Below are positions 4,041 through 58,043 of a DNA stretch of 64,000 bases, in pieces. Under the pieces are notes generated by a model. That model searched no databases. It had not been told where the DNA came from and saw only the letters and a list, made by a program, of their open reading frames with translations. The translations under genes were made by a program, and so were the position numbers. How positions within the stretch are numbered: the first letter of the stretch is position 1; each line of letters starts with the position of its first letter. The DNA is from Candidatus Sulfotelmatobacter sp. (lineage in GTDB: Bacteria > Verrucomicrobiota > Verrucomicrobiia > Limisphaerales > UBA11358), in assembly GCA_035503455.1 (NCBI GenBank), contig DATJTK010000074.1, forward strand, positions 3,536 to 67,535. The letters are read 5' to 3'.

Positions 4041-6176
4041 GTGGAGCAAACCCGGCGACTTTCTAACTTTGCATGGACAGAATGGATTGTTCCGGGACTC
4101 GTATGTGCGCTGGTGATTGGCATCTTTGCCTGGACCGCAGCACCCGGTTTCCACGACATTGCAACGCTGCGCGCGCAGGATTGTTACTACAATTTATTGG
4201 TTCAAGGTTTTCGTGAAGGTCAATTAAGCGTAAACAGAGACGTGGCGCCCGGCCTCGCTTCGCTGGCAAACCCGTACGACCCTACCGCGAATAAGCCGTA
4301 TTTGTGGGACATCCACCATATCTGCCACGACATGAGCTATTATAAAGGCAAGCTATACCTTTATTTTGGGATCACGCCGGCTTTGACGCTGTTCTGGCCG
4401 TATGTCGTATTAACGAAACACTATTTGGCCGATACAGCCGCCGTCGTGATTTTTTTTGCAGTCGGATTGTTGGTTGCCACTGGTCTTTTGGAGGCTGTCA
4501 GACGGCGTTATTTTTCCGAGACAAGCGCATGGATAACGGCGTCTGGCGTGATGGCGATAGGGCTGGTCACGGGCACATTGGAGCTTTTGTCTTCATGCGA
4601 TGTCTATGAAGTGGCGATCAGCTGCGGCTTTGCCTTTACGATGCTTGCATTGGCCGGGATATGGAAGTCATTGCACGAGCCAAATCGAAACGTGAAATGG
4701 CTTTTGTTGGCCAGCCTGGCATATGGGCTCGCGGTAGGGGCAAGACCGTCGCTGCTATTTGGCGCGATAATTCTTGTGATGCCGGCAGCCCAGGCATGGG
4801 CGCGCGCGAGTGGGCCGGGTTCCCGCCGGCGCGCAGGTTTATGGCTCGTGCCTGCCGTAATTCCGATAACGCTCATCGGGCTTGGCTTAATGCTTTACAA
4901 TGATTGGCGGTTCGGCAATCCATTCGAATTCGGCTGGCACTACCAATTGACAGACCACCTTCAGAACACGGGCACGCGGGAGCTTGGCTGGTCCTTTCTG
5001 TGGTACAATTTCCGTTTTTATTTTATTGGGCCAATGCACTGGACAAGTCATTTTCCTTTTCTGGAATATGTCCCGTTGTCGCCGCAGCCGCCGAGTTACG
5101 GCGGAATTGAGATGCCCTATAGCGGCATATTAACCGACTATCCAATAGCATGGCTGGCGTTGGCGGCGCCGTTGGCATTGAGAGCCATCCCAGGAAAAGA
5201 CATTTCGCCACTGCGCTGGTTTGTAGCGGCCATATTCCTCCTCTTTCTAACCAGCGCGGTGACCGTTTGCCTCTTCTTAAGCGGCAGCAGCCGTTACGAG
5301 TTCGATTTTCTGCCCGATTTGATGTTGCTGGCCGTCATTGGCATCTTCGGGCTGGAACGCGCTTTGGCACATTCAATCGCCTGGCGATGGCCTGTTCGTG
5401 GAATATGGTGCCTGCTGTTGGTTTATTCGATTTTCTTCAACGCCATGGCAGGTGTGAAAGCTCATGCGATGCAGAACAACCTCGACGGCAATGTTATTTT
5501 TAACCAGGGCGACACGGCCAAAGCGGTCGAATATTTTAAAAAGGCGTCGGAACTTGATCCTCAATCCGCTTCTTTTCACTTTGCGCTTGGCAACGCTCTT
5601 TCTCGATCTGGGCGAATGGACGAATCCATCGCCCAATATCGGAAGACTTTAGAGATAATGCCCAACGATGCCGAGGCCGCTAACAACCTGGCGTACACGC
5701 TCCTGCAAGCCGGCCGGGCGACCGATGCCATCCAGTATTTCCAGCGGGCTTTGCAGATTCAACCCAGTTACCAGGCCTATTACAACCTCGGCTATGTGTA
5801 TGGCCGAAGCGGTAATGCGACGGAGGCGTTGGCCTGTTTTCAGGAAGCAATTAAGCTTCAGCCTCAATTTATGCCGGCGAAAATCCATCTGGCCTGGATA
5901 CTTGCCACATGTCCTGATCCAAATGTTCGCAATGGAAATGAGGCTGTTGCATTATTGGAAGGAGTCAGCCAGGCCGGCGGAGGCGCTGATGCGGGATTTC
6001 TCCGCACCCAGGCAGCCGCTTATGCCGAGGTCGGGCGTTTTTCAGAGGCAATAACAACGGCGCAAAAGGCGTTAGCGCTGGCAAACGCACGATCCAAGGC
6101 CGGTCTGATAGATGAACTGCAATCCGAAATAAAACTCTATCAAAAAGGTTCTCCCTGCCGCGCTACGATTTATTAA
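4041..6176 (+). CDS. Polytopic membrane protein (GT-C/ArnT-like topology suspected) with C-terminal TPR repeats
   Basis: 711 aa with about 12 hydrophobic segments over aa 15-480, followed by TPR-like repeats (AVEYFKKASELDP, AIQYFQRALQIQP, ALACFQEAIKLQP). GTG start. The N-terminal 480 aa are paralogous to 45199..46641. Confidence 0.8.
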   Translation: MEQTRRLSNFAWTEWIVPGLVCALVIGIFAWTAAPGFHDIATLRAQDCYYNLLVQGFREGQLSVNRDVAPGLASLANPYDPTANKPYLWDIHHICHDMSYYKGKLYLYFGITPALTLFWPYVVLTKHYLADTAAVVIFFAVGLLVATGLLEAVRRRYFSETSAWITASGVMAIGLVTGTLELLSSCDVYEVAISCGFAFTMLALAGIWKSLHEPNRNVKWLLLASLAYGLAVGARPSLLFGAIILVMPAAQAWARASGPGSRRRAGLWLVPAVIPITLIGLGLMLYNDWRFGNPFEFGWHYQLTDHLQNTGTRELGWSFLWYNFRFYFIGPMHWTSHFPFLEYVPLSPQPPSYGGIEMPYSGILTDYPIAWLALAAPLALRAIPGKDISPLRWFVAAIFLLFLTSAVTVCLFLSGSSRYEFDFLPDLMLLAVIGIFGLERALAHSIAWRWPVRGIWCLLLVYSIFFNAMAGVKAHAMQNNLDGNVIFNQGDTAKAVEYFKKASELDPQSASFHFALGNALSRSGRMDESIAQYRKTLEIMPNDAEAANNLAYTLLQAGRATDAIQYFQRALQIQPSYQAYYNLGYVYGRSGNATEALACFQEAIKLQPQFMPAKIHLAWILATCPDPNVRNGNEAVALLEGVSQAGGGADAGFLRTQAAAYAEVGRFSEAITTAQKALALANARSKAGLIDELQSEIKLYQKGSPCRATIY

Positions 6177-40980: not shown

Positions 40981-41907
40981 ATGAATAGAGCCGGGATTTA
41001 CGAATTGGAATGTTTCGTCGCTGTCGCGGAAGAACTCAGTTTTTCCCGTGCTGCCAGGCGTTTGCACCTGAGCCAGCCGCCTTTGTCGCGGCAGATCAAA
41101 TCACTAGAGGAAAAACTCGGCGTACGCTTGTTGAATCGGAACACCCGCTCAGTCACGCTAACATCGGCCGGAGGCCTTTACCTTCAGGATATCCGGCAAA
41201 TTCTGACGCGGCTTGACGCCGCAACGGCATCCGTTCGCCGCGCCGGCACCGGTCAAATTTCGCGCCTGAATCTGGCATTTGTCGGCGTATTGCTGGGGGA
41301 AGACATGGCCGCCGTTCTTCAATCGTTTCGGAAACTTCATCCGCAATGCCAGATTCATCTTACGGACCTGCCGCCTGCGGCGCAACTGAATGCATTGCAG
41401 GCAGGGCAAGTGGATGGAGCGTTCATAGGCGCAGCGCCTCAGAAGCTCAATAAAGGCCTTTCGTCGGTTATTTGGAAACGGGAACCATTGTTGATCGCCC
41501 TGCCTGAAGGCCACGCATTTGCTGCGGCCAAAAAGGTGACCCTTTCGGCGCTCAAAAATGAGAATTGGGTGATGGTAGCGCGGACGGCGGCCCCGGCATA
41601 TCGCCGGCAATTTGACCGGGTGTGCATGGACGCGGGCATCCATCCACAAGTGGTGCAGGAATCCGAGCGGGTGCCGGCGGTGCTCACGATGATTGCCGCG
41701 CAACAGGGTATCAGTTTGCTCCCGGAAGCTGTTTCTCGCCTGGTCCATCCGGGCGTTGTCTTTCGCGCAGTCAAGGGCCGGGCACCCATGCTGGAGCATG
41801 CTTTCGTCTATCGGGCGGACGGGGAGAATCCATTGGTTTCGGACTTTTTGAATTTGTTGGGGAGGGCCCGGTCGTCAAAAAAAATGAAACTCTTGTCTCG
41901 TGAATGA
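40981..41907 (+). CDS. LysR-family transcriptional regulator
   Basis: N-terminal HTH LECFVAVAEELSFSRAARRLHLSQPPLSRQIKSLEEKLGVRLLNR plus a LysR substrate-binding domain. Confidence 0.92.
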   Translation: MNRAGIYELECFVAVAEELSFSRAARRLHLSQPPLSRQIKSLEEKLGVRLLNRNTRSVTLTSAGGLYLQDIRQILTRLDAATASVRRAGTGQISRLNLAFVGVLLGEDMAAVLQSFRKLHPQCQIHLTDLPPAAQLNALQAGQVDGAFIGAAPQKLNKGLSSVIWKREPLLIALPEGHAFAAAKKVTLSALKNENWVMVARTAAPAYRRQFDRVCMDAGIHPQVVQESERVPAVLTMIAAQQGISLLPEAVSRLVHPGVVFRAVKGRAPMLEHAFVYRADGENPLVSDFLNLLGRARSSKKMKLLSRE

Positions 41908-41911
41908 ATCC

Positions 41912-41952
41912 AAAACATCGAACATCGAACATCGAACACTGAACATCGAATG
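41912..41952 (+). repeat. CATCGAA heptamer-tract element, solo arm
   Basis: AAAACATCGAACATCGAACATCGAACACTGAACATCGAATG, 4 nt after the LysR stop and 14 nt before the convergent gene's stop. Confidence 0.85.
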
Positions 41953-41966
41953 CCGGAAATCGCGGT

Positions 41967-43415
41967 TTATGGAATGAAGTGCAATAGAGCAGCGGAAGCC
42001 GGGGGCACCTCAATCGTGAGGGTGCTGGATTTGGCGTGTTTGACTTTATGCCATTTGCCCCGCCAAATGCCGTCCGTACCAATGGCTGCGCCGCCAAGCG
42101 TAACGCCCGTTTTTGCGGCTACGTCCGCCTGCTTTTGCGCCAGGTCCATCCGTTTCCATGATCCGGCTATGGCATTTTGTCCGAGTTGAAATGAAACCTT
42201 CGCGGATTCGGCATGGTCGCCATAGCTTTTGTTGATGAGGGTCACGTAATACGAGCCGTCATTATCGCGATAGGCGTACGCGTCAAAATTAAAACCCGGC
42301 GCCGGGTCCGCATTCACCGGCAGAGGGCGTCCGCGGGCTGCCTGGGTGAAGGCCAAAAGAGCATACGCCTGGGGCCGCATCGCAAAGCCCTGGCCATCCG
42401 GTGCCCGGACGAAGGCGGCGTAGTTGGCCGCGGCGAATCCACCGTCGCGTCCCACGGCTTCGCCGGTGTGGTAATTGACTCCCACAATGTGATGAGCCGC
42501 CCACCAATGGGTGCAGTCCAATGCCCATAACGTGGATGCATAGGTATCGCTCGCGTCTTTTGCGCCTCCGTTGAAACAACTGTTCATCTCATCAATCCGA
42601 TACGGCACGCCTTTGGCGGCGAGAACCGCGCCGACATGGGCATAATCTTTTGCGTAGTCGTTATGAAGATTGTCGTCAAGGAAGCGGGCCCGGGTTGCAG
42701 GCGGGTTTGTTTCTCCGGCGCGGCCTGAACCGAGAAAATAATAATGGTCGCTCGCGATGGCCAGATGCCCGCCGGCGGCGACAGCATCGGCCAATTGGAC
42801 GGCATAAATGTTGGCCCCGGCCACACTGGGGCCATCGAACATCGCGTTGGGGACGGCGTTCAATATGGCGTCGTAGTGCGGTTTCCATGCGGCAAAAAAT
42901 GCGGGGAATGTCTTGAGATAAAACGAAGGTTCGTTGCCGATGGCGAAGGAGTCGAGGTTGCCGGCATAATTGGCTTCGATGTAACGGGCCAGGCGGGCGG
43001 ACTCGGCCGGGTCTCCTTTTTTCAAACGGAACGAATAGATGACCTGGACGCCAGCAGCGCGCGCAAACTTGAAGAGCATGTCAATGTCCGGCCCATGCGG
43101 GACGGGCACGCGCCGGTCATCCACGGCGTTGGCGCCGACGCGCAGACTTTTGATGCCGAGGGTCTGAAAGGCATTGATGAGCGATTGGTCATTGGGGTCA
43201 AAGTAATATTTCCCGTTGGTCGGCAGCAGCATGGACGACTCGTAGCTTAAGCCGAGGAACCGGGAAGGCAGTTCCGGGCCGCTGCCGTTGGGCGCGATCG
43301 TGATGGTGACGGGCTGCGTTTGGCCTTCAAGGAAACGCGGCGCCAGCAGGACGGGAGTCAACAGGACGGCCAAAAGCAGTTTGCGTGTCCAGATGACGAA
43401 AGAAGCGGAATTCAT
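41967..43415 (-). CDS. Secreted glycoside hydrolase, clan GH-A (GH79/GH30-like)
   Basis: Signal peptide. FLGLSYESS...LGIKSLRVGANAVD and the IGNEPSFY (NEP acid/base motif) are typical of (beta/alpha)8 clan A enzymes. The family assignment is tentative. Confidence 0.55.
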   Translation of the reverse strand: MNSASFVIWTRKLLLAVLLTPVLLAPRFLEGQTQPVTITIAPNGSGPELPSRFLGLSYESSMLLPTNGKYYFDPNDQSLINAFQTLGIKSLRVGANAVDDRRVPVPHGPDIDMLFKFARAAGVQVIYSFRLKKGDPAESARLARYIEANYAGNLDSFAIGNEPSFYLKTFPAFFAAWKPHYDAILNAVPNAMFDGPSVAGANIYAVQLADAVAAGGHLAIASDHYYFLGSGRAGETNPPATRARFLDDNLHNDYAKDYAHVGAVLAAKGVPYRIDEMNSCFNGGAKDASDTYASTLWALDCTHWWAAHHIVGVNYHTGEAVGRDGGFAAANYAAFVRAPDGQGFAMRPQAYALLAFTQAARGRPLPVNADPAPGFNFDAYAYRDNDGSYYVTLINKSYGDHAESAKVSFQLGQNAIAGSWKRMDLAQKQADVAAKTGVTLGGAAIGTDGIWRGKWHKVKHAKSSTLTIEVPPASAALLHFIP

Positions 43416-43474
43416 GAATGGAATTTTAGATAAAAGGCGGAGGATGTCAGGGAGAAATTGCTAGTGGCCTAATC

Positions 43475-43532
43475 GGTTTGGTGTCCACCCTTCAGGGTGT
43501 TCCGGAGCACGCTAAAGCGTGTACACCAAACC
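43475..43532 (-). repeat. Palindromic two-hairpin element (copy 2 of 3, compact form)
   Basis: GGTTTGGTGTCCACCCTTCAGGGTGTTCCGGAGCACGCTAAAGCGTGTACACCAAACC. The terminal 10 nt are reverse complements, and there are two internal hairpins. Confidence 0.9.
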
Positions 43533-43669
43533 AAAATAGGACACTCCCGATAAATTGATCGCAATGATTCCACTTGTCTTATTTTGAAAGTGGCGCACGT
43601 TGATGGGTGGAGGATTGGAGCCCGATGGCTCGGGGCACAAAAAGGAGCAGGGAAATAAAAGGATATTCT

Positions 43670-48463: not shown

Positions 48464-48501
48464 GCGACGAATTGCCTAAAAGCTCGTGCACGCATCAGGG
48501 A

Positions 48502-49311
48502 TTATCTGATATTCCCACTGCACCCGTTCCACGTTTCTAATACTAAAGAGTGCTCAAATTGCATGATGTCCTCGTAGTCAAAGTTATCAGGAATGCGCAG
48601 CGGCGTCGGGTAAAGTCGAACCGGGCATTCTCCACGCTGACTTTGATAGGTTACATTTGCGTTCGGCATTTGCCCCAAACGCAAAAGCAAATGGTTAAAC
48701 TGAACGTTGAATTTGAATCCGTCCCCATTATTTAGGACCTGGTCTTGTGGCTTGCCGCCGTTTATGACATGGAAGTGTCTCGTAATTGTGCCGCCTACTT
48801 TAGAAGCAACGGACTTGGAATACGCCAAATCTGCCCAGCAGTTTTCGGGCAGGATTCCGTCCTTTACCTTTTGCATCACATCTGCCGAAAACTCGACCGG
48901 GTACTCGCCCTGCAAGCTGGCCTTGCTGAACATAATGGCCGTTTTCATCAGCCATTGCGCCAGCTTGTTCCGCTCTGACCTCAATTCCTCAATCATCATC
49001 AAAGCCAGTTTCGGCCACTGTGGTTCAATCAGATAGCCAAGCCGCGACTCAAACCATGCTTCCAAATCATTCATCCATCCGTTGTTACACTTTGCGCAAA
49101 CGTGACGGACTGTAAGGTTTTGGATTAAATGTCCGTTTCGGGTGAAAGGCTCTCTCCCTTCGATGGATAGTCCGGCGACTACTGGATACTTGACTGCGCC
49201 TGCACGCTCGCAAAGGCGCAGGGCTAAAACGTGTTCTCGACTGTCTGCGGCAGAACCGCAGAAAACGCAGGAACGACCCGGAGCCGTAGCGGCCTGTGTG
49301 GTCTGATTCAC
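48502..49311 (-). CDS. HNH-type (HNH_5-like) zinc-finger nuclease domain protein with unknown C-terminal domain
   Basis: CVFCGS...SREHV ... RHVCAKCNNGWMNDLE matches the CxxC..EH...CxxCN beta-beta-alpha-Me layout. The C-terminal 170 aa or so have no recognisable family. Confidence 0.65.
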   Translation of the reverse strand: MNQTTQAATAPGRSCVFCGSAADSREHVLALRLCERAGAVKYPVVAGLSIEGREPFTRNGHLIQNLTVRHVCAKCNNGWMNDLEAWFESRLGYLIEPQWPKLALMMIEELRSERNKLAQWLMKTAIMFSKASLQGEYPVEFSADVMQKVKDGILPENCWADLAYSKSVASKVGGTITRHFHVINGGKPQDQVLNNGDGFKFNVQFNHLLLRLGQMPNANVTYQSQRGECPVRLYPTPLRIPDNFDYEDIMQFEHSLVLETWNGCSGNIR

Positions 49312-49341
49312 CGTACTTAATATTTGATGTTCAGCCCACGA

Positions 49342-49830
49342 TTAGCAACGTGGCCTCGGACAGCATTTGGGCCCGCAGGAGCCGCGAGTTTGAATCTTCT
49401 GAAGTGTTTGAACTTTCTTAGTGGACGACGAAGAGTTTTCGGCTAGACGAAGGATATTTTCAGCTTCATGTTTTTCGGTGAGCGTCAGGCTATGCAGAAT
49501 TTGACGGATGTTCTTCTCATACACTCGGGCGGCCAAGTTTGGGGCTAAATGTAGAAAGTCTGGCCCCGTTTCTTCGTAAAGAATGAATTTGTCAAACCAT
49601 ACCAATGGGCCACCCCCGTGAATCTCTCCCTTGTGTGCGCCGATGCCGACCCAGTTGATTTTGCCATCTATAGAATGCGAGCTTGCTTCGCTGCCGATGC
49701 CGCCGACACCGATGACAGCATCGAACTCCCAATTGCGGACGCTCCCCATGCAGTCCTCAACGCCGAACCACCCATCCTTCCGTGGGTCGCCGGGATGGGT
49801 TCGCTTGTATATCAGGATACGCTTGGACAT
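49342..49830 (-). CDS. Hypothetical protein (162 aa), Cys-rich C-terminus
   Basis: ORF in the operon. No motif recognised (YKRTHPGDP...DCMGSVRNWEFDAVIGVGGIG...; the tail is GSCGPKCCPRPRC). Confidence 0.6.
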   Translation of the reverse strand: MSKRILIYKRTHPGDPRKDGWFGVEDCMGSVRNWEFDAVIGVGGIGSEASSHSIDGKINWVGIGAHKGEIHGGGPLVWFDKFILYEETGPDFLHLAPNLAARVYEKNIRQILHSLTLTEKHEAENILRLAENSSSSTKKVQTLQKIQTRGSCGPKCCPRPRC

Positions 49831-49856
49831 TTTCGGCACTTTGCCCTGCGCGACTA

Positions 49857-50084
49857 TCAAGACAGTGAGTAAGTAACCATTTCGCCAGTGAGTCGCAAAT
49901 AGGTCGTGTCCTGGCTGTTTGCGCGGATAGTGCCTTCACCAATCATGTCTGCAATCACCAAATGGGCTGTATTTGGAGGAATCGAAAGCTGTTTGGAGAT
50001 TTGGCTGAATGGCACGGGACCACCCCAGCCTCGCAAAAAATCGGCGATGCCTATTTTCAAATTCTTAATTTTTAGATTGTCCAT
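49857..50084 (-). CDS. Small winged-helix-like DNA-binding protein (75 aa)
   Basis: The helix-turn-helix-wing pattern FSQISKQLSIPPNTAHLVIADMIGEGTIRAN..TYLRLT is inferred from sequence only. First gene of the three-gene operon. Confidence 0.45.
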   Translation of the reverse strand: MDNLKIKNLKIGIADFLRGWGGPVPFSQISKQLSIPPNTAHLVIADMIGEGTIRANSQDTTYLRLTGEMVTYSLS

Positions 50085-50266
50085 ATATTAGCGTAATATC
50101 CGCTGCTCACATAACTGTGTCAATGGCTGTTGGCTAAATTTTTACGTCCACCTTTTCCTGCTCCCAGCACCGCGAGCAAAACAGAACGGGGGGCTGTCGG
50201 GTTGGGCTTGGCGTGCCGCGTGAAAGGCTTGTCGCACATGCCGCCGCCAGCTATCTTGGAATTGTT

Positions 50267-50728
50267 ATGGGCCTGTTCAAATTATTGAAAGGCGCTATCG
50301 GCATACCGCACTACGCGGGAGTCGCGGACTGCAAGAAAGCGGCGCTCTCTGGCGACGCGCAGGCTCAGTTCACTCTAGGTGGTTTCTACGAACGCGGCCA
50401 GTTTGGTTTGCCACATGACTATACTGAATCTGGGAAGTGGTATCGGAAAGCCGCAGAACAAGACCACCACGCCGCACAGCTTTATTTAGGGGTGTACCTT
50501 GCTCAAGGCCAAGGAGTGGAACAGAACGTCGTCGAGGGCTTGAAGTGGATTCTGCTGGCAAAGCGGGGAGGAGCATGGGACCGCCATGCGGCGAACGATA
50601 CACAAACGCGACTTGAGGCTCTGATGACGGACCAACAGATTGCCGAAGCGCGTGTCATGGCGGCTATTTTTTCGGCGGAACGCGGCGACAAAGAGGCTGC
50701 GCGATGGTTGAAAACGCTGCGACGGTGA
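50267..50728 (+). CDS. Sel1-repeat (TPR-like) protein
   Basis: GDAQAQFTLGGFYERGQFGLPHDYTESGKWYRKAAEQDHHAAQLYLGVYLAQGQGVEQNVVEGLKWILLA gives at least two clear Sel1 repeats. Confidence 0.82.
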   Translation: MGLFKLLKGAIGIPHYAGVADCKKAALSGDAQAQFTLGGFYERGQFGLPHDYTESGKWYRKAAEQDHHAAQLYLGVYLAQGQGVEQNVVEGLKWILLAKRGGAWDRHAANDTQTRLEALMTDQQIAEARVMAAIFSAERGDKEAARWLKTLRR

Positions 50729-50812: not shown

Positions 50813-51319
50813 CTAACGGGGATAATCAATTTCCAAAGCCTTTGCGATGGCCTCGATGCCCTTTTCGTTTTTAAATTCATCCAGCGCTTCTCCCTTGGTG
50901 TGAACTTTTTGCCAGCCCGATTCCATGATTTTATGGTGCTTGCGAATCCATTCCGCAGGCAACGTGTATAGCTCCAGTTCTGTAAAGCCTTCAAGCACGG
51001 GCTTGCGCCGGTAGAAATAACCGATGTTCATAAACACCACGATGAGGTACTCGAACGCGTCTATAGTTTTTTCTTTGACCGGAAAAGCGCGGTCACAATC
51101 TGTCTGGTAGCGGCTTTTCACCTGAACGCGAATTAGCTTTTTTGCATTGCTTGGGTGGACGCAAATTAGGTCGTATCCCGCATTATACGGCGGAGCTTTG
51201 TACGCGAGAATGTTCCGGCGCATCAAATAACCCATAGCCAAATGTTCTGCTCCTAGCGAAACTACGGGCAGCCTTCTGGCTTCTTTCTTTTCCTTCGTGG
51301 TTAAACTTTCGATTCCCAT
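50813..51319 (-). CDS. PD-(D/E)xK-fold nuclease-like protein (DUF4365/Hjc-like core)
   Basis: GAEHLAMGYL ... AGYDLICV ... IRVQVKSR gives an E ... D ... QxK arrangement. Start set at the ATG at 51319. Confidence 0.5.
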   Translation of the reverse strand: MGIESLTTKEKKEARRLPVVSLGAEHLAMGYLMRRNILAYKAPPYNAGYDLICVHPSNAKKLIRVQVKSRYQTDCDRAFPVKEKTIDAFEYLIVVFMNIGYFYRRKPVLEGFTELELYTLPAEWIRKHHKIMESGWQKVHTKGEALDEFKNEKGIEAIAKALEIDYPR

Positions 51320-51332
51320 AATGATGTCATGT

Positions 51333-51632
51333 TCACTTGCGCTTTTTGGCGGATTGTTTCCTGACTCGACGGACGCGAGACAGATTGCCCCTGCCGTCAC
51401 GTGCCCCAAGTTCCTTGCCGACTTTGATTCGGCGGCTGCCGCATTTGCAAACAGGCACCATGTCCCTGGCGCTCACCCGCTGTCTGATAACGCTCGTGGC
51501 ATCCGGTTTCTCGCTTTTGAATCCTTCCCATGAAGTTTCAGAACGGCCCCAGTTATCCGAAGAGCTAATGCAAAAGCCTTTTGCGCCGCAATCTTCGCAA
51601 TGCGCCTCATACGTTGTATGTTCCCAACTCAT
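51333..51632 (-). CDS. Small zinc-ribbon-like protein with basic tail
   Basis: HCEDCGAKGF ... PVCKCGS cysteine pairs. Its stop is 14 nt upstream of the nuclease-like gene. The start is uncertain. Confidence 0.35.
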   Translation of the reverse strand: MSWEHTTYEAHCEDCGAKGFCISSSDNWGRSETSWEGFKSEKPDATSVIRQRVSARDMVPVCKCGSRRIKVGKELGARDGRGNLSRVRRVRKQSAKKRK

Positions 51633-52048
51633 TACTGCACAGTATCCGGGATGGCAAAACGGTGTCAATCGCTGCTCGACGAAAGTGCGCAAAACGTGCC
51701 GGCCGCGCTCTACGCTCGCGCAGGACGCGCCGGGACCGGAAAAGGGCAGGGATTCTGTTTTGTGCTCATTTTTTGACAGCCTAACGCCCGGAGAGGAACA
51801 GGGCTGCTTCGCTCTGCACGCTTTCCCCCATTTTCCAAAGAAACTGAATGGAGGCGAGGGCCGGAATCGTGCTTCCCTTCTCGGCCACAGTCGCCCCGCT
51901 TTATCAGTGTTTGCTACCGCTCTATTTCGTCCAGAGACTTCTTAATCGCTCGCTTGATGGCATCTCGATATCGGGTGTTTGTCGTTAATAAGTATCACGC
52001 ACGAATTGCCTTGTTTGCCTTGCTGTCCGTCTGGCAGCATCCGCCATC

Positions 52049-53988: not shown

Positions 53989-54065
53989 TGGTGCACGCAT
54001 CAGGAGTTGAACCTGAAACCTTCTGATCCGTAGTCAGATGCTCTATCCAATTGAGCTATGCGTGC
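53989..54065 (-). tRNA. tRNA-Arg (anticodon ACG), CCA encoded
   Basis: Minus-strand sequence GCACGCA-TA-GCTC-AATTGGATA-GAGC-A-TCTGA-CTACGGA-TCAGA-AGGTT-TCAGG-TTCAACT-CCTGA-TGCGTGC-A-CCA folds as a full cloverleaf. Confidence 0.95.
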
Positions 54066-54192
54066 CCATGAAATACTGAAGATTCAATCCGCGACTGGTG
54101 CCGCGTGGTCAAGCGACATCGGGACGCCTCTTGCAAATAGCACTGGAAAAGTAAACAAAAGTGGGCGGAACGGCAAGGGGAAATTAATGCCG

Positions 54193-54232
54193 GAAACATC
54201 GAACATCGAACGTCGAACGCTGAACATCGAAT
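54193..54232 (+). repeat. CATCGAA heptamer-tract element, solo arm
   Basis: GAAACATCGAACATCGAACGTCGAACGCTGAACATCGAATG. Confidence 0.85.
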
Positions 54233-54243
54233 GCCCTCGTCTG

Positions 54244-54270
54244 CAGCCTCACGCAAAGGGCGCAAAGTCC
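54244..54270 (+). repeat. 27-nt direct repeat, left copy (partner at 56059..56085)
   Basis: CAGCCTCACGCAAAGGGCGCAAAGTCC is identical at both sites. Together they bracket hipBA. Confidence 0.85.
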
Positions 54271-54290
54271 GCAAAGGAATTTTGGCATTT

Positions 54291-55634
54291 TCAATCCTTT
54301 GCGCCTGTCCGGCGTAGCCTTTGGCGGAGCCGGGGCCGTTGCGGCCTCTGCTTGGGAGTCGCGCGACCACGAACGACTCGCAGGTTTGGAAACCTGCGGT
54401 ACGTCTGTGAGCCAATCAACTGTTTGGCTTCGGCTATGAGTGGATGTTGAAATGCGCTGGCATAGGCATCGAGCGTGGAGGCTTTGATGCGCAGTCGCCG
54501 TCCCGTTTCGCGCCAACCGGAGACAGCGGTAAAAACCTCTCGAAGAATTTCTTTCGATTCACTGGGTCCGAGGCCGAAACGTTCGGCAGCGTCTAATGCA
54601 ATTCCAATGGCCGGTTCAGCCAGATCCTCGGTAATGGGCATTTTATTGATATAGACGCGATCCACTTCCGGCACGGGATTGATGTCGTAAGCTGGTGAGA
54701 GCGACCAGCGTCCGGGCTCGGGCATCAAGAAACCATGATTACGAGGATGATCGTCATAGTTGCTGGCCAGAAGCGAAAAAATCAGACGGCGCCATAATTC
54801 ACGCAGGTCGGAGGGAACGTCGTTGCCAAACTGCCGGATGCCGTCGGCTAGCAATGTGTATGCGCCGGGATTACCTTGAGGCAAACCGAGCAGGCTCGAT
54901 GCGGAAACGAATGGAATGCGACTTTTGTCCACTCGGTCAAAGCGGGTAATGACCGCAACACCGTATCCGCCGACCGGTACGAGTTGATGCTCTGCCACGT
55001 GGACGCCCGCTTTTTCGGCCAGCGTGAGCGCGAGAATTTCTCCTGCGGCGATGTCGCGCGTATCGTCAGGTTTCGGGAACTTCGCAATGGCAAGCCGGCC
55101 GTCCCTTAGGGCGACGGCTGCTTTTGGGCGAGCGCCGCCTAATGGCGAACCCGCCCCAAGAAGAAAGCGCAAATCCTGGGCAGTTTCGTTTTCACTGTGA
55201 ACCGCATCGGTGGCGCGCAGCAAGGCGTTGAGACGGACCAATGGCGGGATTTTTCCGCTCGTGGCGGCAAGAAACGGACTTTTGGGGTCCAGGCGAAAAC
55301 GCAGAGCGCCGACACGCGACATATCATCCAGTGCCAAAACATAATCAATATCACGATATGGTTGTTGCGGGAGAACTTTTTTCCGGACAGCACGTTCAAT
55401 CAAGACCCGTCCCCATCGGTCGGGGCCGCAGTCCTGGATCGCGCCAAACAAAGTCGCGCCATGATAAGTCCCTCGTTGCAACGGCAGAGATGTCGGGTCA
55501 ATGGCAAAAGTATCCTCGCGTTGAAGCCATTCGAGAGCATATTCAAACGAAACGGACGCTCCCCGTTCTGCCGCAAAAAGCCGTCCAACAAGATGCGTTT
55601 GTCCTCTCCAATCAATATGAACTTCGAGGGTCAT
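54291..55634 (-). CDS. hipA: HipA-family Ser/Thr kinase toxin (type II TA)
   Basis: N-terminal coupling domain plus GAGSPLGGARPKA and NYDDHPRNHGFL catalytic motifs. The last 40 codons or so run through repeat sequence (see findings). Confidence 0.88.
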   Translation of the reverse strand: MTLEVHIDWRGQTHLVGRLFAAERGASVSFEYALEWLQREDTFAIDPTSLPLQRGTYHGATLFGAIQDCGPDRWGRVLIERAVRKKVLPQQPYRDIDYVLALDDMSRVGALRFRLDPKSPFLAATSGKIPPLVRLNALLRATDAVHSENETAQDLRFLLGAGSPLGGARPKAAVALRDGRLAIAKFPKPDDTRDIAAGEILALTLAEKAGVHVAEHQLVPVGGYGVAVITRFDRVDKSRIPFVSASSLLGLPQGNPGAYTLLADGIRQFGNDVPSDLRELWRRLIFSLLASNYDDHPRNHGFLMPEPGRWSLSPAYDINPVPEVDRVYINKMPITEDLAEPAIGIALDAAERFGLGPSESKEILREVFTAVSGWRETGRRLRIKASTLDAYASAFQHPLIAEAKQLIGSQTYRRFPNLRVVRGRATPKQRPQRPRLRQRLRRTGAKD

Positions 55635-55987
55635 AAATGGGAGCGGCGATGGATGCGTTGGGGCAGACGGCGTTCATCCATGCTCAGGGCGAGTTCATCG
55701 CTGGCGGGCGCGGCAAGATTTGCCAGACGGTTATGCAATTGAAGAACAAAAACGGCCGTCGCCAAAGTTCCAATAGCGATGGTCGGGTCCCCGCGTTCAA
55801 GCCGCCAGAGCGTGTCGCGGCTGACAAATAGCCGGGACGCCATATCATTTGTGGAGATACCACGTTTCCGCCGGGCCAAAGCCAGGTCGCGTCCCAATTT
55901 GCGAAGCGCATGGGATGCCGGCAACGGAATGGAGCCAGTTTTTGACATGGACATAGTGTCTGCTATATCTGACAAAATGTCAAACAA
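55631..55987 (-). CDS. XRE-family HTH antitoxin (HipB-like)
   Basis: LALARRKRGISTNDMASRLFVSRDTLWRLERGDP HTH. There is a 4-nt overlap with the hipA start. Confidence 0.8.
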   Translation of the reverse strand: MFDILSDIADTMSMSKTGSIPLPASHALRKLGRDLALARRKRGISTNDMASRLFVSRDTLWRLERGDPTIAIGTLATAVFVLQLHNRLANLAAPASDELALSMDERRLPQRIHRRSHL

Positions 55988-56058
55988 GGTCCGGTTTATA
56001 AGACGTTATTTGTTTTTAAGGGCCGGGCGAGGCGTTCCCAGGTCGTGAGAAATAGCTC

Positions 56059-56085
56059 CAGCCTCACGCAAAGGGCGCAAAGTCC
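56059..56085 (+). repeat. 27-nt direct repeat, right copy
   Basis: Identical to 54244..54270. Confidence 0.85.
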
Positions 56086-56149
56086 ACAGCGCGGCGGAGC
56101 CGCAACCAAAAGGTGAAACATGGATAAAATGGCTTTTGGTCTTAAATTC

Positions 56150-56236
56150 GTTTGGTGTACACGCTTTAGCGTGCTCCGGAGCAGCTTCGAGACTGGACGG
56201 CGAACCCGGAACACCCTGAAGGGTGGACACCAAACC
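56150..56236 (+). repeat. Palindromic two-hairpin element (copy 3 of 3, with 28-nt central insertion)
   Basis: GTTTGGTGTACACGCTTTAGCGTGCTCCGGA-[28 nt]-CCGGAACACCCTGAAGGGTGGACACCAAACC. Confidence 0.9.
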
Positions 56237-56314
56237 GAATTCGGCTGCTACATTTTGCTTGCAATCGTTCCTAATTGTAATCATAATTAGTTCCTATTGT
56301 GAGTTGCCTTTTAT

Positions 56315-57178
56315 ATGAAATCAAACCTTCTCATTTGCGTCGTCATCGCTTCCGTTAGCTTTCTGCCGCGCGCTTTCGGACAAGGCGCTTTGACACCGCC
56401 GGGACCGCCGGGGCCCACGATGCTGACGCTTTCGCAGGTCGAGCCGCGAATACCGGTGGATGCCTCTCATACCCCAGGGAACAGTAGCGGGGAATTTGTC
56501 ATTACCAATTCCGGCTCGTATTTTCTGACAACAAACATTATTGGCATCAGCGGCAAAGACGGAATTGATATTTATACCAACGATGTGACGTTGGATCTAA
56601 ATGGCTTCTCGCTGACGGGCGTCAGCGGCAGTCTTAGCGAGGGTGTCCAGATATTTCCCGGTTGCACCAACATAACCGTGCGCAATGGCGCCATTCGCGG
56701 CTGGAGCCAGCATGGCGTTTACAGTGTTGGAAACAATGTGACTTTGGAGGGGCTGTCTGTTTCGGGTAACGCTAATTACGGCCTTGTCGTTGTCGGGGTC
56801 AGCGTCATTCGAAATTGTATGTCCAGTGGTAATTATTACACGGGCATAGCAATTGAAGCCAACGGCTGTCTGGTATCAGGCAATGTTTGTGCCGGAGATG
56901 ATATAGGCGGCACGTCGGGTAACGGGGGTATAGTCATTTTGGGTTCCTATAATCGCATTGAAGGCAACCATATAACCGGGACTGGCGCCGGCGGGGATGG
57001 CATCGTGGTCGAAACCTACGGCCTGTGCACCAACAACATCATCATTCAAAATTCCGTGCAGGGCAGCGGCGCAAATGATTATGTATTCAACACGTTGCAA
57101 CTTGTTGGCCCGATCATTACCAATAGTGTTTCCGGAGTCATCACCAATTCAAATCCCTGGGCGAACTTTGGGTTTTAA
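56315..57178 (+). CDS. Secreted right-handed parallel beta-helix repeat protein (paralog A)
   Basis: Signal peptide and N-terminal LTPPGPPGPTMLTLSQVEPRIPV. Periodic G/N-rich coils (VTLDLNGFSLTG, ITVRNGAIRG, NRIEGNHITG). Confidence 0.78.
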   Translation: MKSNLLICVVIASVSFLPRAFGQGALTPPGPPGPTMLTLSQVEPRIPVDASHTPGNSSGEFVITNSGSYFLTTNIIGISGKDGIDIYTNDVTLDLNGFSLTGVSGSLSEGVQIFPGCTNITVRNGAIRGWSQHGVYSVGNNVTLEGLSVSGNANYGLVVVGVSVIRNCMSSGNYYTGIAIEANGCLVSGNVCAGDDIGGTSGNGGIVILGSYNRIEGNHITGTGAGGDGIVVETYGLCTNNIIIQNSVQGSGANDYVFNTLQLVGPIITNSVSGVITNSNPWANFGF

Positions 57179-57197
57179 TCTTCAACGCACTGAAACA

Positions 57198-58043
57198 ATG
57201 AAAACTCCAATTTCAATCCTCGCCGTGTTAATCGCCGTGGGTCTCCAGCCATTGGCTTTGTTGGGGCAGGGCAGTCTCACGCCGTCTGGACCGCCCGCGC
57301 CGGGGATGCTGACGCTCGCGCAAGTTCAGCCACGCACGCCCGTGGACTCTGTTCATACTCCGGGCAACAGCGCCAACGAATTCGTCATTTCCAATCCCGG
57401 TTCCTATTACCTGACGACAAATATCATGGGCGTGAGCAGCGAGGAGGGGATAGACATTGTGGCGAGCGATGTGACGCTGGATTTGAACGGGTTTTCGTTG
57501 ATTGGTCCTTCGACTGCGTATTCCGGAATCGCCATCTATTCCACCGTAACCAACGTGGTGGTCCGGAACGGTATCATTAGTGGTTGGGGAACTCTGTATA
57601 ATGGCATTTCTTGCCTTGGGAACAACGTGGATTTTGAAAATCTTACTATTTACGGGGAACTCACGGGCATATCCTGTTTCGGCGACGGCGGCGTGATCAA
57701 AAATTGCACGCTGAGCCGCACCGGTCAGTATGGAATTTATTTAACCGGCTCGAATTATCTGGTGACCTGCAACAACTTTATTGAGATAAACACCGGGAAC
57801 AACGGAAACGGGGCGGCCATGTACATCGCTTCAGTCGGCAATCATATCGATGGCAATAATGTCATTGGCAACAATCCGGCGGGTTACGGACTTTGGGTCT
57901 TGGGCACCAACAACGTCGTCGTTCGCAACTCCATCTCAGGCAACGCGCCAAATAATTATGCCATCTCGAGTGTGCCCAATGACGTTGGCCCGATTGGCAA
58001 TGCGTCAACCAATACGAGCCCTTGGGGAAACATTTCAAATTAG
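57198..58043 (+). CDS. Secreted right-handed parallel beta-helix repeat protein (paralog B)
   Basis: Collinear with paralog A (LTPSGPPAPGMLTLAQVQPRTPVDSVHTPGNSANEFVISNPGSYYLTTNIMG...VTLDLNGFSLIG). Start at the ATG at 57198, 20 nt after the paralog A stop. Confidence 0.78.
   Translation: MKTPISILAVLIAVGLQPLALLGQGSLTPSGPPAPGMLTLAQVQPRTPVDSVHTPGNSANEFVISNPGSYYLTTNIMGVSSEEGIDIVASDVTLDLNGFSLIGPSTAYSGIAIYSTVTNVVVRNGIISGWGTLYNGISCLGNNVDFENLTIYGELTGISCFGDGGVIKNCTLSRTGQYGIYLTGSNYLVTCNNFIEINTGNNGNGAAMYIASVGNHIDGNNVIGNNPAGYGLWVLGTNNVVVRNSISGNAPNNYAISSVPNDVGPIGNASTNTSPWGNISN

Follow-up and report, generated by a model that had tools for sequence, protein, structure and literature searches.

Among the single-protein HNH nucleases of restriction and defense are enzymes that carry an added recognition domain, the McrA-type type IV enzymes being one example. 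The term Nmad, for 'nucleotide modification associated domain', stems from comparative genomics of DNA base-modification systems. The His-Me finger nucleases have been sorted into groups, of which groups 1 and 8 bear on the present case (PMC5714182). Nmad5, a relative of Nmad3, was found in phage thymidine-hypermodification cassettes (PMC9476957), and the NMAD domain has been listed among predicted, unvalidated defense domains (PMC13092281). A literature search on Nmad3, PF18754 and HNH_5 returned, within the papers it covered, no experimental work on these families. Here we examine three adjacent genes, A, B and C, within a 64-kb stretch of metagenomic DNA (hereafter the window), which had been proposed, in what we call the original prediction, to form an undescribed defense system. 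We favor a different reading, to which we assign a probability of roughly 0.55: the three genes and their promoter make up a composite accessory cassette of ~1.7 kb, restricted to one lineage, in which two modules that are independent elsewhere have been joined. The cassette occupies the far end of a small islet of low G+C (GC) content that lies at a tRNA-Arg gene and has no integrase.

All three genes are on the minus strand (Table 1), with spacers of 26 nt between A and B and 30 nt between B and C, and the predicted coordinates, strand and gaps of the open reading frames (ORFs) all agree with ours. The long reading frames of B and C are right, N-termini included, because homologs span their full lengths. 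In the public annotation (L081, L082), C is shortened to 190 aa (VMF08_08895), a call that drops the entire CxxC...EH...CxxCN region, and B is given as 135 aa, or is missed, with an antisense 84-aa call in its place. The trio has a GC content of 0.503 against 0.551 for the window, the 1st percentile among windows of equal size; the expected low GC was thus found, but the minimum of the window (0.491) lies elsewhere than the trio, near 44.2 kb.

Evidence that the cassette moves or is inherited as a block comes from the locus that encodes the nearest C homolog (P0001, 74% identity). This locus, L180, aligns with the window in a single 1724-nt alignment at 73% nucleotide identity (L180 5115-6820 = window 50191-48498), which begins 107 nt ahead of A and ends 4 nt beyond the C stop codon. 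The flanks of the two loci have nothing in common, with helicase/DUF8437 and N6_Mtase genes in L180 instead of the Sel1 and esterase genes of the window. The block rules out that the trio is unique to the window's strain. In L180, A and B (5233-5951) carry one-base indels at homopolymers (A5, C3/C4) and C is intact; these frameshifts may be sequencing errors, in what the contig naming suggests is a long-read assembly, or early decay. A further locus (L179) holds A and then the first 13 codons of B up to the contig end, with homology beginning at the start codon of A and an unrelated 84-aa ORF upstream.

Beyond this clade the three genes part company. The full trio was found only in the window's own population (L081, L082, L095) and in L180/L181; neither A nor B was present at any of 87 non-self C loci, most of them with 10-kb flanks, and neither A nor C at any of 84 non-self B loci. 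Clustering of 3135 flanking ORFs revealed no conserved neighbor of the C superfamily beyond vertical synteny in related Streptomyces, and C is normally solitary across its family. For the original prediction of a three-gene operon, the tight spacing, a conserved promoter-like region and the L180 block speak in favor, whereas the wider co-occurrence is missing; outside the narrow clade, the families are not syntenic.

The closest C relative that lacks A and B (P0004 in L182, 71% identity) indicates how the two modules are arranged. There C stands alone, its homology with the window beginning 20 nt before the start codon (at 49331 in the window), and a stretch directly before it is homologous to the DNA that precedes A in both the window and L180. 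The element ACAGGAAAAGGTGGACGTAAAAATTTA, upstream of A, recurs ahead of C in L182, and the local alignment score of that L182 region was 29-37 against a shuffled mean of 14.7, a value reached by 0 of 2000 shuffles. Because the region upstream of the lone C is homologous to that upstream of A, A-B appears to lie between the ancestral promoter region of C and C itself, an arrangement that may have arisen by insertion or by later loss.

Within this upstream region, a promoter scan located the promoter-like sequence TTGACA-17-GATATT (50123..50095), roughly 10 nt ahead of the A start codon, although such sites were no more numerous in the scanned region than expected from shuffling. The site (aligned as TTGACA-17-GATAtT) and the rest of the upstream 107 nt are kept in L180, and in L182 a TTGACA comes after the homologous stretch that precedes C. 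A second element, GAACATCAAATATTAAGTACG, conserved between the window, L180 and L182, immediately precedes C in all three and may be C's own -10 region (AATATT). We also considered GAACRTMAAAWWTTTA as a putative operator motif and rejected it, since its enrichment in the window was not significant (3 matches versus 0.63 expected); what we claim for the upstream regions is their longer homology alone.

The first module is C itself. Its close family comprises 91 proteins of ~265 aa, at 36-77% identity and mainly from Verrucomicrobia subdivision 3, in which C15, C18, E26, H27, C72, C75, N76, W79, M80 and E84, as well as a C-terminal QFNHLLLR, are invariant or almost invariant. Scanning one genome per species for the pattern confirmed 438 C relatives among 599 stretches examined, distributed over Actinomycetota (many of them Streptomyces), Bacillota, Acidobacteriota, Planctomycetota and Bacteroidota, and almost all 245-300 aa long. 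In 60 diverse N-terminal domains the succession C..C, EH, C..CN, W, M, L, E is likewise near-invariant or invariant, and C15, C18, E26, H27, C72, C75, N76 and E84 are at least 90% conserved across 29 close and 60 distant members. C has the residues expected of a His-Me finger: an acidic residue with a histidine, a helix asparagine and two CxxC pairs. HNH_5 (PF14279) was matched below threshold by 43 of the 60 superfamily members (best E-value 1e-4), and no other Pfam family recurred among them. For C of the window, the N-terminal 111 aa scored 14.8 bits against HNH_5 (E 0.027), short of the gathering threshold of 27.5 bits, and the full-length protein had no match at E≤0.1. The HNH_5-like CxxC...EH...CxxCN N-terminus described in the original prediction is thus supported: the motif is invariant in the family, and most superfamily members match HNH_5 sub-threshold.

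In an AlphaFold2 (AF2) model of C, with a predicted local distance difference test (pLDDT) value of 83.8, H27 terminates a strand and CxxCN opens a long helix preceded by a strand, an order compatible with beta-beta-alpha; beyond the N-terminus the model forms a helical hairpin and then an eight-stranded beta region. A Foldseek search of the model against PDB returned nothing at E≤0.001, the motif probably being too small for a whole-chain search, and the remaining ~170 aa, noted earlier as lacking a recognizable motif, likewise found no fold match there. Three profiles, built from the C family, its N-terminal superfamily and the B family, matched PDB sequences only by chance (TolC, GCN4 and SHMT). 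On its motifs and predicted secondary structure, we read C as a putative new, unmodelled branch of the His-Me finger superfamily. Two other assignments, C as a divergent Nmad3 and C as a paralogue of B, were each rejected at an hhalign probability of 0.1.

In scans of Pfam, NCBIfam, PHROG and PADLOC, the sole match of C was phrog_38451, of unknown function, with none in PADLOC-DB v2.0.0; the 60 superfamily members gave five single weak PADLOC matches, one of them to PtuB (E 0.015). Searching phages with tblastn yielded no match to C and a viral-contig scan found none, while plasmids yielded four weak actinomycete matches. The ratio of nonsynonymous to synonymous substitution rates (dN/dS) of C is 0.08-0.14, at dS above 1.

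Several C homologs lie among defense-type or mobile genes: an island with type III restriction-modification (R-M), PLD and integrase genes; an MmeI-like R-M gene with a QueC-like gene; PIN, Cas1/2 and TrwC fragments; a helicase with N6_Mtase (L180); and a prophage-like region (L182). These contexts fit accessory genes that are often island-borne. They are anecdotal rather than systematic and do not amount to a statistical enrichment near defense genes.

The second module is A-B, and B, which had been taken for an orphan, turned out to belong to a large family: a word-indexed search returned 569 matches, and an exhaustive profile search yielded 643 clusters at 50% identity. Its members are nearly all stand-alone proteins of 150-200 aa that share the motif YKRTHxGDP...DCMG...VIGVGGIG and a Cys-rich basic tail, with a conserved N-terminal core of Y8 K9 R10 T11 H12 D15 P16, D26 C27 M28, R32 and V39 I40 G41 G43 G44. 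Window B is 48-58% identical to members of the family and has every invariant residue; its dN/dS is 0.14 (residues 4-96, window versus L180, dS ~1.5). No Pfam, NCBIfam, PHROG or PADLOC model matched B above threshold. In Foldseek searches, the AF2 model of B (pLDDT 85.8) was nearest to PH1033 (template modeling (TM) score 0.42-0.46, E 0.8), SRA and Lon N-domains in PDB, PUA-like folds all at E>0.1, and in BFVD to uncharacterized phage proteins only (E 0.08); with nothing at E≤0.001 in either, the PUA-like hint is a lead only.

The neighborhood of B proved more informative than its fold searches. Clustering of the ORFs flanking 80 B loci revealed one recurrent neighbor, a protein of ~250 aa encoded directly downstream, which is Nmad3 (PF18754; Pfam E 4.6e-83 to 3.8e-22). 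Using a hidden Markov model (HMM) of this neighbor, we found Nmad3 adjacent to B in 19 of the 48 loci with at least 700 nt of downstream sequence (13 convergent, 6 co-directional), and no more than 122 nt separate it from B in all but one of the 23 loci where it occurs. Moreover, an N-terminal Nmad3 domain is naturally fused in frame to a complete B-family domain in two proteins, P0228 (398 aa) and P0263 (381 aa). On megaplasmid pHG1 of Cupriavidus necator H16 (L178), a B-Nmad3 pair lies between ParDE and a restriction endonuclease. B-Nmad3 pairs are presumably nucleotide- or nucleic-acid-directed; the Nmad3 partners of B had no match in PADLOC.

In the window, the gene downstream of B is C and not Nmad3, and tblastn with seven Nmad3 proteins found no Nmad3 anywhere in the 64 kb (best E 0.27). 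Window B falls among the Nmad3-paired B proteins in a rough neighbor-joining (NJ) ordering. The B loci without Nmad3 have no second recurrent partner, only singletons (Abi_alpha, AIPR, a Pycsar-type TIR, T5orf172, an integrase, RepA, a DDE transposase and housekeeping genes). One B locus is part of an island with integrase, toxin-antitoxin (TA) and type I R-M genes, and a viral-contig scan for B produced four loci, none of them with Nmad3.

For A, a search of 5.8 billion proteins found one non-self homolog (P0360, 68% identity), and its dN/dS, measured against L179, is 0.54. The predicted winged helix-turn-helix (wHTH) received several weak but mutually consistent signals, all of them short of significance: PCI (19.9 bits) and HTH_IclR (16.3 bits) in Pfam, with a cut-off of 22 for each, and AsnC and Z-alpha wHTH domains among PDB sequences (E 0.1-0.8). 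A is probably a fast-evolving, wHTH-like transcriptional regulator of the cassette. Its only PADLOC match, to Csa3 (E 0.015), is at chance level, and the statement in the original prediction that A, B and C match no named defense system agrees with what we found in PADLOC.

Combining these observations, we propose the following model of the composite cassette. The first module would be C, a self-sufficient protein of ~260 aa with an N-terminal zinc-braced His-Me finger, in which E26-H27 at the end of beta-1 would supply a metal ligand and the general base, N76 and E84 would stand on the next helix, and C15/C18/C72/C75 would bind zinc. C would most likely be a DNA cutter, and its helical and beta-rich C-terminal region could serve target recognition or regulation. 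The second module would consist of a wHTH-like regulator, A, and of B, which elsewhere would work with an Nmad3-domain protein. With A-B placed behind the promoter region of C in the window's clade, the three genes are probably co-transcribed. A defense or addiction role of the cassette is plausible.

Several observations weigh against this model or parts of it. A census of 128 neighbors at 27 C loci showed no dominant family and many housekeeping genes, and one C homolog (P0014) has a housekeeping context; because these neighbors are mostly unrelated or housekeeping, a defense or mobile role of C is not general. The HNH assignment of C is made from motifs and sub-threshold profiles, with no fold or sequence match in PDB, and co-transcription stays presumptive, with promoter-like sites no more numerous than chance would give. 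Some contigs are short, and only 43-48 B loci had usable downstream DNA, so the absence of partners is under-sampled for B. Finally, C and B are under purifying selection, A having the higher dN/dS, and a block kept in order and with its boundaries in two contexts while under selection may, in this clade, be a functional unit after all rather than a juxtaposition.

This last point leads to the reading closest to the original prediction, a true three-component defense or abortive-infection system in which A regulates, B senses or modifies a signal (a nucleic acid or nucleotide) and C is the nuclease effector, with B as a swappable part, partnered by Nmad3 in most lineages and here by the HNH protein. 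The exact ends of the block in two contexts, the purifying selection on B and C, the single conserved promoter region and the defense-type neighbors at several B and C loci all speak for such a system; so does the listing of NMAD among predicted defense domains, and the position of window B among Nmad3-paired proteins is compatible with a replaced partner. We nevertheless consider it unlikely, given that B-C or A-C co-occurrence is absent from ~170 other loci, that the closest relatives carry C alone, L182 with its homologous promoter-proximal stretch among them, that B has no second recurrent partner besides Nmad3, that A and B of L180 appear frameshifted next to an intact C, and that PADLOC has no match. 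What stands of the proposed undescribed system are real, co-travelling genes, with B and C under selection; outside the clade the regular partner of B is Nmad3 and not an HNH protein. A new three-gene defense system is not established, the cassette being clade-restricted and assembled from independent parts. A broader and distinctly speculative variant, which we hold to be improbable, makes B the portable conserved core of an undescribed two-component conflict system with alternative partners, Nmad3 in most lineages and C in the window's clade, so that A-B-C would be a new effector variant; if true, that system would also take in the B-Nmad3 pair of pHG1.

At the other extreme, the genes could be neighbors without joint function, B having been stranded from a former B-Nmad3 pair, and the trio being what is left of a decaying islet, held together solely by recent common descent. 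The missing Nmad3 of the window, the missing integrase of the islet, the apparent frameshifts in A and B of L180 and the relaxed dN/dS of A are what this would predict. However, B is constrained and keeps all invariant residues of its family, the ends of the block coincide between loci whose flanks differ wholly, and the L180 frameshifts, which fall at homopolymers, may be errors of the assembly; we regard this reading as improbable. It is also conceivable that C is not a nuclease, and that CxxC...CxxC forms a non-catalytic zinc ribbon for nucleic-acid or protein binding or for regulation, with EH and N as structural residues. That all HNH_5 matches stay below the gathering score, that solved HNH structures gave no fold or sequence match, and that C shows stable synteny in related Streptomyces and some housekeeping contexts could be explained in this way. 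Still, the E-H, N and E residues are near-invariant or invariant across phyla at the positions expected of a His-Me finger, HNH_5 is the sole recurrent Pfam family, and the predicted strand-strand-helix order fits; we rate a non-catalytic C as very unlikely.

Under the composite-cassette reading, the surroundings of the trio are those of a tRNA-associated islet, bounded on one side by the tRNA and on the opposite side by a direct repeat of the tRNA's 3' portion (Table 1). The 14-nt sequence CCTGATGCGTGCAC begins 2 nt past the stop codon of C, confirming that the trio abuts an att-like (attachment-site-like) repeat, and recurs exactly at 53991-54004, where it forms the 3' end of tRNA-Arg(ACG). 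Against 0.04 copies expected there are two, and 0 of 100 shuffles contained two; with flanks included the match is 16/19. The two copies would delimit an islet of 5.5 kb containing C, B, A, the Sel1-repeat protein, two small ORFs and a high-GC DUF4838 glycosidase gene, the last adjoining the tRNA. No integrase or recombinase is present among the genes at 48.5-54.0 kb, and an Rfam scan of 46-57 kb for retron and other RNAs found the tRNA only. Of the predicted tRNA-linked island, then, the tRNA and the 14-nt repeat are there, whereas an integrase is not and a high-GC DUF4838 gene lies inside.

Table 1. Coordinates of the cassette, of its surroundings in the window and of the B-Nmad3 pair on pHG1 (NC_005241.1).
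Feature	Coordinates	Strand	Details
A	50084..49857	minus	75 aa, ATG start; ORF list
B	49830..49342	minus	162 aa, ATG start; ORF list
C	49311..48502	minus	269 aa, GTG start; ORF list
Conserved region upstream of the cassette	50085..50191	minus	L180 homology begins at 50191
B-C spacer	49312..49341	minus	holds GAACATCAAATATTAAGTACG; sequences and alignment
att-like partial copy of tRNA-Arg 3' end, CCTGATGCGTGCAC	48486..48499	minus	exact repeat
tRNA-Arg(ACG)	53989..54065	minus	ARAGORN; Rfam tRNA 69.7 bits
Sel1-repeat protein	50213-50728	plus	Pfam 1.6e-11; phrog_8741 1.4e-14
168/198-aa protein	50813-51409	minus	PD-(D/E)XK_5 at chance level, E 0.056
Cys-rich 119-aa ORF	51333-51692	minus	no match in Pfam, NCBIfam, PHROG and PADLOC scans
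B-family gene of pHG1 (L178)	NC_005241.1 185684-186088		41.5% identity to window B; no PLSDB gene-table entry
Nmad3-domain 'hypothetical protein' of pHG1 (L178), WP_136227936.1	NC_005241.1 184950-185642		directly downstream of the B-family gene

The DNA around the islet holds further repeats and accessory genes. Just beyond the tRNA-Arg gene lies a HipBA-like TA pair (54291-55924, minus strand), made up of a HipA kinase gene (Couple_hipA/HipA_C) and an HTH_31 gene. Direct repeats of 33 nt (94% identical; 54241-54273 and 56056-56088) flank the pair, giving it the look of a cassette inserted on its own. Arrays of the heptamer CGAACAT occur at 41899-41968 and 54180-54235, 12.25 kb apart, with 42-nt copies at most 95% identical; the second array adjoins the tRNA-Arg gene. 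A perfect 33-nt inverted repeat (43473-43505 and 56206-56238), whose arms are 12.7 kb apart, extends to 68 nt at 79% (43475-43542 and 56139-56206) with a small hairpin, CACCCTTCAGGGTG, in each arm. Its arms enclose the tRNA, the islet and the HipBA pair, and it may be an element resembling repetitive extragenic palindromes (REP-like) or mark the ends of a larger unit. A 241-nt direct repeat of 70% identity (56375-56615 and 57261-57501) is explained by two tandem Beta_helix paralogues (56315-58043, plus strand).

The metagenome-assembled genome (MAG) from which the window comes (contig k141_181792) is labelled Candidatus Sulfotelmatobacter, of the Acidobacteriota, and the nearest C homologs in genome contigs are labelled Verrucomicrobia subdivision 3, a conflict that suggests mis-binning or mislabelling.

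Irrespective of the role of the cassette, the analysis delimits two sizeable families for which Pfam, NCBIfam and PADLOC have no model: that of C, solitary, HNH_5-like, ~260 aa long and spread over at least five phyla, and that of B, ~160 aa long and comprising the 643 clusters given above. Both are reasonable candidates for defense-system screens. The B-Nmad3 linkage, by neighborhood and by two fusions, is the first functional handle on the B family, and the presence of the pair on pHG1 of the cultivable C. necator H16 makes it directly testable.

Set against described systems, the locus shares traits with several of them. C has the CxxC...(D/E)H...CxxCN layout and zinc-bracing Cys quartet of HNH_5 and of His-Me finger groups 1 and 8, with an acidic residue before the catalytic-type His and an Asn on the next helix; it departs from HNH_5 in a 40-residue insert between EH and CxxCN, in a family-specific WMxxLE helix and in its ~170-aa C-terminal region without a fold match, and all of its HNH_5 matches are sub-threshold. 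Like McrA-type nucleases, C is an HNH-type protein that stands alone, is a few hundred residues long and is often found beside R-M, integrase and TA genes, but the fold search recognized no SRA, EVE or other reader domain in it, PADLOC gave no match and many of its homologs lie in ordinary chromosomal contexts. In contrast to Septu PtuA/PtuB, the cassette has no ATPase partner and window C gave no PtuB match, although it resembles this and other ATPase-plus-HNH pairs in placing an HNH-type effector in an operon with partner genes. The islet lacks the integrase or excisionase of tRNA-targeted integrative islands, and the gene on its tRNA side is a high-GC DUF4838 glycosidase gene, yet like them it borders the 3' end of a tRNA, has a significant 14-nt direct repeat at the opposite end and carries low-GC accessory genes. 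Finally, unlike Nmad3 (PF18754) modules, the window has no Nmad3 gene and the unrelated C comes after B, but window B belongs to a family whose recurrent neighbor and fusion partner is Nmad3.

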